IMG/VR virus record: IMGVR_UViG_3300039332_000015
DNA from: a virus
Taxonomy: Duplodnaviria > Heunggongvirae > Uroviricota > Caudoviricetes
Length of the DNA: 4,047 nucleotides
Reading direction: 5' to 3' (one strand)
Shown: positions 3,099 to 3,351 of the stretch, piece after piece
Layout: each line of letters starts with the position of its first letter
Position numbering within the stretch: position 1 is the first letter of the stretch
Made by a program: the position numbers and the translations under genes
The notes under the pieces: generated by a model
Database searches by the model: none
What the model was told of the DNA's origin: nothing
Seen by the model: the letters and a program-made list of their open reading frames with translations, nothing else

Positions 3099-3230
3099 TT
3101 AAAAACGATATCCTGCCGAGAACATAAACACCCACGGGTCAAGGCGTACATTGTCGCTATAACTGCCTTTAGCCAGTTTACGACCATCAGATTTATACTT
3201 CGCGGTGGTATCGATATCCATGTACCACAC
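3099..3230 (-). other. ompW: ompW 3'-terminal coding segment (43 codons plus TAA), not joined to an ompW 5' portion; candidate phage-borne replacement 3' end containing the att core
   Basis: Minus-strand translation gives VWYMDIDTTAKYKSDGRKLAKGSYSDNVRLDPWVFMFSAGYRF*. From memory, E. coli OmpW ends ...SVWYMDIDTTANYKLGGAQQHDSVRLDPWVFMFSAGYRF: identical at both ends, divergent in the middle. Upstream in frame the sequence is unrelated (IAVYHIFYNLP) and hits a stop at 3264..3266, with no Met-initiated ompW body. It was missed by the ORF track because it is short. Confidence 0.7.
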
Positions 3231-3351
3231 TGGTAGATTATAAAAAATGTGATAAACAGCTATTTATAAAAGGAAAAACAAACTTTTATGGTGATTTTTC
3301 ATACCGTTTTTCTGTGTTTTTAACTGATTGATTTTGTTAAAGTCTTTTTTT

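Follow-up and report, generated by a model that had tools for sequence, protein, structure and literature searches.

What does it mean when the integrase gene of a phage is followed at once by the end of a bacterial gene? This question is raised by a stretch of 4,047 nucleotides (the whole of which is called the window below) from the IMG/VR virus record IMGVR_UViG_3300039332_000015, classified in the Caudoviricetes, where the integrase gene int is followed by a 3' fragment of ompW in the opposite orientation. Such an arrangement might be the border between an integrated prophage and its host, or it might be the phage attachment (att) site in its unrecombined form, attP. A first-pass annotation of the sequence chose the second of these, and comparison with integrated relatives bears this out. 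By alignment, the window can be shown to hold a complete, unrecombined POP' (attP-type) site of the PPompW family of lambda-like Escherichia coli prophages. The physical setting of this site is a separate matter, and it is probably the internal joint of two prophages lying in tandem at ompW rather than part of a free or excised phage genome. The features on which the argument depends are as follows.

1923..3053, + strand: int, a lambda-type tyrosine integrase of 376 amino acids with an N-terminal arm-binding domain (PF09003 Arm-DNA-bind_1, E 7e-22; PF00589, E 1e-16).
3060..3094, + strand: P' arm, with three direct arm-type repeats GTTTTGCAGA(A/G) starting at 3060, 3073 and 3084 (repeat search; conservation).
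3097..3232, - strand: ompW-homologous att segment of 136 bp, holding the phage-supplied ompW 3' end (alignment; PF03922).
3099..3230, - strand: open reading frame (ORF) of the ompW 3' fragment, 43 residues, with its stop codon at 3099-3101 (Pfam PF03922 OmpW, E 6.6e-10).
3202..3232, no strand: core of 31 bp, GCGGTGGTATCGATATCCATGTACCACACTG, containing the crossover point (31 of 31 bases identical to K-12 ompW, or attB).
3233..3364, + strand: P arm, AT-rich phage DNA (24% G+C) with an in-frame stop, a match to the IHF consensus, and a distal repeat GTTTTGCAGAG.

The topology of the site becomes evident when it is aligned with the products of integration, for which the attL of strain LC-1302-2020, the attR of DETEC-S792 and of P-EibA, and the empty site in K-12 ompW served as references. 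Positions 1-3232 are 99.88% identical (four mismatches) to attL loci, the integrase-side junctions between prophage and ompW, in many E. coli genomes, and the left flank of the core is 100% identical to the phage arm of the LC-1302-2020 attL. The remaining 815 nt (3233-4047) match attR loci, at 99.9% for DETEC-S792 and 99.6% for P-EibA, and are 100% identical to four short contigs from metagenomes or sequencing runs. Over the first 135 nt of the P arm, identity is 99.3% to the attR arm of P-EibA and 98.5% to that of UCPROB-002. The switch from attL-like to attR-like sequence falls at the 31-bp core, which is the same in the window, attL, attR and K-12 ompW. Thus, the comparison with related integrated prophages that the first-pass annotation had proposed assigns the left arm to attL and the right arm to attR.

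True integrase-side junctions look different. There, as the first-pass annotation had reasoned, the phage segment is in frame with the host ompW 5' part, and the result is an intact OmpW of 217 amino acids that is 94% identical to the K-12 protein. This hallmark of attL fails in the window, where the P arm follows position 3232 and the frame of the ompW fragment, extended upstream, reads ...FFLL*IAVYHIFYNLPVWYMD. The stop, noted earlier at 3264-3266, is indeed in frame (TTA on the + strand, TAA on the - strand). No ompW 5' sequence, disrupted or otherwise, occurs in the 815 bases to the right of the core, up to the end of the window at 4047; P-EibA-like prophages have the orthologous sequence at their right end, including a DinI-like remnant and the C-terminus of eaaA. 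Conversely, the hallmarks of a lambda-type attP are present, namely an arm-binding tyrosine integrase, a core identical to attB, phage DNA on both flanks, and repeats in both arms. The distal arm-type repeat, which the first-pass annotation expected to be lost from an attL, is indeed missing from attL, whereas attR and all attP-type junctions have it; its copy in the window (3352-3362) lies just outside the 3099-3330 interval that had been described. Recombination of this site with attB by its cognate Int would accord with the many natural attL and attR products that carry the same arms, which lend it indirect support.

The lack of an ompW 5' part, and nothing else, might also be explained by a degraded prophage-host junction, in which an attL lost that part through a deletion or an insertion. 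This is the least credible of the explanations and can be considered excluded, because the sequence breaks, to the base, at the att core and continues beyond it in a conserved phage arm, 99-100% identical to attR and complete with the IHF-like block and arm repeat. Such a junction would require ompW 5' sequence or the end of an insertion sequence (IS) at 3233; neither is present, and this candidate was rejected.

The att segment itself reveals how the site was built. It is 136 bp long, as against 121 bp for the PPompW att sequence already published; the difference is a 15-bp insertion, which adds five residues to OmpW. The encoded fragment, MWYMDIDTTAKYKSDGRKLAKGSYSDNVRLDPWVFMFSAGYRF, covers positions 158-195 of the 195 in the PF03922 profile and is 67% identical to residues 175-212 of K-12 OmpW (E 3e-18). 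Its right boundary agrees with a deposited record, as the feature annotated "duplication due to insertion of PPompW" in LC567839 terminates at the base equivalent to 3232. Within the core, DETEC-S792 has different bases in its attL and its attR at the counterpart of position 3213, and therefore strand exchange can be placed within 3214-3232, although DETEC-S792 alone was informative for narrowing the crossover by core polymorphisms. By analogy with lambda, two inverted hexamers, GTGGTA at 3205-3210 and TACCAC at 3223-3228, could serve as core-type Int sites. Among eight aligned attP-type junctions, both ends of the ompW fragment are conserved and its middle is variable. The exact 43-residue ORF, which is possible only in the attP state, has no counterpart on record.

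The variable middle of the fragment has a consequence for the host protein. Differences between phage and host ompW 3' ends are almost confined to the stretch between the last two conserved strand-like segments (window 3140-3200, - strand), which reads TANYKLGGAQQHDSVRLDPW in K-12, TAKYKSDGRKLAKGSYSDNVRLDPW in the window, where it is five residues longer, and TAKYKSGVTTVKDSVRLDPW in the SCU-125 type; the comparison covered loci L003 (6099-6752) and L004 (9099-9227) together with the window. Since the phage ompW 3' end differs from that of the host, lysogens make a chimeric OmpW of 217 amino acids. From general beta-barrel topology, the variable stretch should be the last surface loop, and integration may thus alter a surface epitope or receptor.

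The arms that flank this segment carry the other elements expected of an Int substrate. The 11-mer GTTTTGCAGAG is found at 3060, 3073 and 3084, with the first copy starting 7 nt past the end of int, and again at 3352-3362. When one mismatch is allowed, TTTTGCAGAG occurs at 3061, 3074, 3085 and 3353, which is four matches versus 0.41 expected, and only 1 of 200 shuffles reached four. The trio beside int is kept in eight of eight aligned attP-type junctions, in which the last base of the first repeat varies. By analogy with lambda, the repeats are likely to be the arm-binding sites of Int. On the other side of the core, the flank described earlier as AT-rich has 24.5% G+C over 3233-3330, compared with 46.4% for the entire window. 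The P arm also includes an exact match to the IHF consensus WATCAANNNNTTR at 3321-3333 on the - strand, the sole exact one in the window, which is presumed to be a candidate IHF site.

Conservation across the site helps to set its limits. The footprint alignment comprised eight attP-type junctions with four divergent P-arm types. Conservation of the P arm is concentrated in 3311-3364, the part that holds the IHF match and the distal repeat, and similarity collapses straight after the repeat. The functional att site therefore spans approximately 3060-3364. These limits, together with the arm-type repeat, are now defined for a very common prophage family.

Much of this picture has precedents. 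The attP of phage lambda (POP') is served by an arm-binding tyrosine integrase and has three direct arm-type repeats near the 3' end of int with one more on the far arm. Phage 21 and e14, which integrate in icd, supply a substitute 3' end of the target gene so that icd stays intact. The window shares these features of lambda and resembles phage 21 and e14 in that the phage carries a substitute 3' end for its target gene, and it differs from all three in the target gene and in the sequence of the repeats. Owing to the 136-bp gene fragment between the P' sites and the core, each arm has its repeats some 110-150 bp away from the core.

The nearest precedent is the PPompW family itself, described by Nakamura et al. 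(PLoS Pathog 2021, PMC8112680; records LC567818-LC567841). According to that paper, PPompW prophages use a 121-bp att sequence in ompW, occur in 44% of 767 complete E. coli genomes, and lie two in tandem in four O157:H7 strains. Their attP was confirmed by polymerase chain reaction (PCR) and sequenced from excised circles. A description of the arm-type repeats was not found in the parts of the paper that were read. Membership is defined there by an integrase gene with identity above 90% across more than 90% of the gene. The left half of the window (3,232 nt, int included) is 96.9% identical to PPompW_EH1846 (LC567839), and on the basis of its integrase and the ompW-derived att segment downstream of int the window can be placed in the family. 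The family, the ompW-derived att sequence, the attP and the tandem arrays are thus already known from that paper, and the site in the window is an ordinary one, a textbook type in a published family and a published kind of context. The main use of the finding is correct annotation.

The window shares with PPompW the int-xis-exonuclease module (97% over 3.2 kb) and an ompW-derived att segment with the same end base, but it has a 136-bp att segment, a P-EibA-like late end with eaaA instead of a type III effector locus, and the POP' state where the PPompW records have attL or attR. With P-EibA of E. coli ECOR-9 (AF151091) it shares a right end composed of the P arm, the DinI-like remnant and the eaaA 3' end. 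However, the right end of P-EibA adjoins the host ompW 3' end as an attR, followed by the intergenic region towards yciE, whereas the left neighbor in the window is the int end of a phage.

Where, then, is such a site found? The first-pass annotation had left four contexts open: a phage genome, an episomal or excised form, a junction between tandem prophages, and a rearranged locus. The tandem junction is now favored, a phage genome or excised circle is possible, and a degraded or rearranged locus is effectively excluded. Two lines of evidence lead to the tandem junction: the arms are non-cognate, and the sole complete genome with the junction has a tandem array.

The first line comes from single prophages. 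By comparison with those examined, the two arms of the window can be shown to be non-cognate, as each pairs with a different partner. LC-1302-2020 has a single remnant of about 24 kb with the left arm of the window, and the P arm of this remnant is 76% identical to that of the window over 135 nt. DETEC-S792 and UCPROB-002 have single prophages of about 57 kb with the P arm of the window but a different int end, and both are without the 15-bp insertion; identity of the int end to the window is 95.4% over 3.2 kb in DETEC-S792 and 78.7% in the 150 nt beside the core in UCPROB-002. Furthermore, two megabase-scale contigs, L019 and L021 (5.2 and 5.07 Mb), contain this left arm (99.88% over 3,232 nt, and 100% over the 150 nt beside the core) with two further P-arm types attached to it at the core. 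On a larger scale, 60 genomes have the best left-half matches (at least 98.0%) among the matches listed and 38 genomes have the full right half, and the overlap is 0.

The second line comes from the array. Among 5,426 complete E. coli genomes, the junction occurs in one, that of strain 2013C-3181 (NZ_CP027312.1), where two full lambdoid prophages, with the junction between them, occupy the space from yciE to a second int, the point up to which the array was read on the right. As in the window, an ompW fragment with the 15-bp insertion is joined at the core to an eaaA-type P arm, and the junction is 98.2% identical over 226 bp. The int-side prophage is only 89% identical to the left half of the window, and so represents a different resident phage. 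A second attP-type junction, in SCU-125, is also in the middle of an array, which was followed on the right as far as int-ompW-yciC. If Int were to insert a second phage into the attL of a resident prophage, the partner would be expected to change exactly at the core.

If the site arose in this manner, the resident would be a prophage of the LC-1302-2020 type, which is widespread, and its int end would form the left half; the right half would be the late end (eaaA side) of a P-EibA-like phage integrated between the resident and the ompW 5' part. At a site of this design, Int and IHF would recombine the phage DNA with chromosomal ompW, and since an ompW 3' end is supplied by the phage, the lysogen would retain an intact, chimeric gene.

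The history of the 2013C-3181 array might be longer than two insertions. Its yciE-proximal ompW fragment (L010, 5271-5396) is of a phage-type variant (TAACACCAGATTTGTACTTA GCC...) where the original host copy would be expected. Either the ompW end of an earlier prophage may have stayed behind, or the array may once have had a third element.

The leading alternative is that the window comes from a genuine single-phage genome, whether a virion or phage record, an excised circle or an episome, whose genome is a mosaic of an LC-1302-type int module and a P-EibA-type late end. Lambdoid phages are mosaic, and it is established that such mosaicism is common. The complete POP' site is indistinguishable from a working attP, and excised circular PPompW with attP has been demonstrated by PCR (PMC8112680). 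Yet the two arms are never paired in any single prophage examined or in any complete genome among the matches just described, and a change of partner exactly at the att core is what Int-mediated joining of two elements would produce. The LC-1302-2020 type of left arm sits in a remnant of about 24 kb without head and tail genes, and the PPompWs analyzed in PMC8112680 were all apparently defective. A distant search of phage records revealed no free phage with the junction of the window, the related site in CP025907.1 being the sole exception, and a plasmid collection gave only attL-type or partial matches, on large records that resemble pieces of chromosome. Overall, a single-phage source is a real but clearly weaker contender.

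A more specific version of this idea is that the site is the working attP of a viable hybrid phage, produced when the int-xis module of an old and often defective resident was swapped at the core onto an incoming P-EibA-like phage within an array. This is unlikely, but if true it would make the att core a regular point of module exchange in lambdoid mosaicism.

Several observations weigh against the tandem junction and should temper any preference for it. Just one or two single-prophage references were examined for each arm type, and this exact pair of arms might occur in a single phage that has yet to be sampled. The whole window is present at high identity in no complete E. coli genome, phage record or plasmid, and an exact 36-mer spanning the core and P arm has no match in species-representative genomes, IMG/VR or JGI metagenomes. 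A related POP' site is present in CP025907.1, a 31.5-kb record deposited as "Escherichia phage 204576", and therefore extrachromosomal forms do reach the databases. Even the match to the IHF consensus is a single one, compared with 0.24 expected. Also, the source contig was not found in the collections searched, and neither a second prophage nor the ompW 5' part has been seen in DNA flanking the window.

Assembly presents a technical challenge of its own at this site. All ten public short contigs with the 75-residue ORF that lies to the right of the core (L022-L031) start at window positions 3192-3229, within or just before the core, and the exact ORF is found only on contigs of less than 2 kb that begin at the core. 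The clustering of contig starts implies that short-read assemblies break there, and the ompW att should be regarded as a place where they tend to do so. Since the assembly graph branches at these positions, the window might have been created by an artifact, either a misjoining of the attL and attR of one lysogen through the core or the inclusion of low-coverage reads from an excised circle. However, the stretch that is exactly shared is just 31 bp, below the final k-mers of most isolate assemblers, and a misjoin within one lysogen would give cognate arms, whereas by the available references the arms of the window are non-cognate. An artifact is accordingly quite improbable.

Nearly as improbable is an arrangement in which one prophage sits inside another, the element having entered by some other site and kept its POP' in the chromosome, with the ompW-like sequence of the kind called attB-in-PP_3. 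Nested lambda-like phages with an ompW-like 121-bp sequence downstream of int are reported within other prophages (PMC8112680), and O157:H7 strain PV15-279 has the order int, ompW fragment, conserved P arm with arm repeat, DinI, nleC and tail genes. Against this, the 21-bp attB-in-PP_1 sequence that accompanies such elements has 0 matches in the window at up to three mismatches, and the sequence to the right of the core is co-linear with the genuine right end of P-EibA-like prophages, at which these meet host ompW and yciE. In PV15-279 (L037, 12099-12400), the "attB-in-PP_3" sequence continues into a P-arm block and an arm-type repeat, and it therefore resembles an entire attP-type site more than an isolated attB-like target.

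There are some practical lessons for annotation in these comparisons. An int gene with a truncated ompW pseudogene after it is the mark of an intact phage attachment site and not of a broken host gene. In a chromosome, such a site is a sign of tandem or nested prophages clustered at ompW, a locus where virulence cargo is known to build up; here the cargo is the EaaA autotransporter, and in relatives it includes the Eib immunoglobulin-binding proteins.

The remaining features of the window are the following.

1..1632, + strand: 3' two-thirds of a prophage exonuclease gene (Pfam PF16473, Rv2179c-like 3'-5' exonuclease, E 8e-68).
1697..1945, + strand: xis, an excisionase of 82 amino acids (Pfam PF07825 Exc, E 1.3e-7; annotation of relatives, WP_000113189.1).
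3038..3064, + strand: terminator-like hairpin over the int stop codon, followed by TTTT and entering the first arm-type repeat (perfect 10-nt inverted repeat, 3040-3049 / 3053-3062).
3328..3555, + strand: ORF of 75 codons, a DinI-like remnant and phage cargo outside the att site (Pfam DinI, E 1.2e-4; 22.7 bits, under the 24.2-bit cut-off).
3967..4047, - strand: last 26 codons and stop of eaaA, an S6-family serine-protease autotransporter (translation ...NAGFRYSF*).

The exonuclease gene extends past the left edge of the window, has 823 codons when complete in relatives, and is named as an exonuclease at all related loci. The exact Int protein occurs in 4,263 blocks of a public collection, most of them adjoining an intact ompW, and the 3' end of int is 72% identical at the DNA level to the int of phage 21 over about 130 nt. 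At the other end of the window, eaaA is the final gene at the right end of P-EibA-like prophages; its counterparts are eaaA in AF151091 and the gene annotated "S6 family peptidase" in relatives. The equivalent of the 75-codon ORF in strain 2013C-3181 is annotated as a partial or truncated DinI-like pseudogene, and several Stx and lambdoid phages have a full-length dinI at the same genome end.

A scan of 2900-4047 for promoters and terminators gave counts close to the shuffled expectation and nothing usable. The hairpin at the int stop codon was missed by this simple scan. It has a predicted RNA folding energy of -14.9 kcal/mol (z = -4.2) and is invariant in eight related junctions save for one loop base. 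A terminator that overlaps an Int-binding site could couple read-through of int to occupancy of the site.

Finally, traces of another gene recur near this locus. In several strains, the annotation of the interval from ompW to yciC includes a partial pseudogene for a "YkgJ family cysteine cluster protein" (L003, 6992-7081; L009, 13438-13527; L032, 44069-44158). PMC8112680 traces another intra-prophage att site to the ykgJ-ecpE region, and a full YkgJ-family gene is present in the late end of some PPompW-type prophages.
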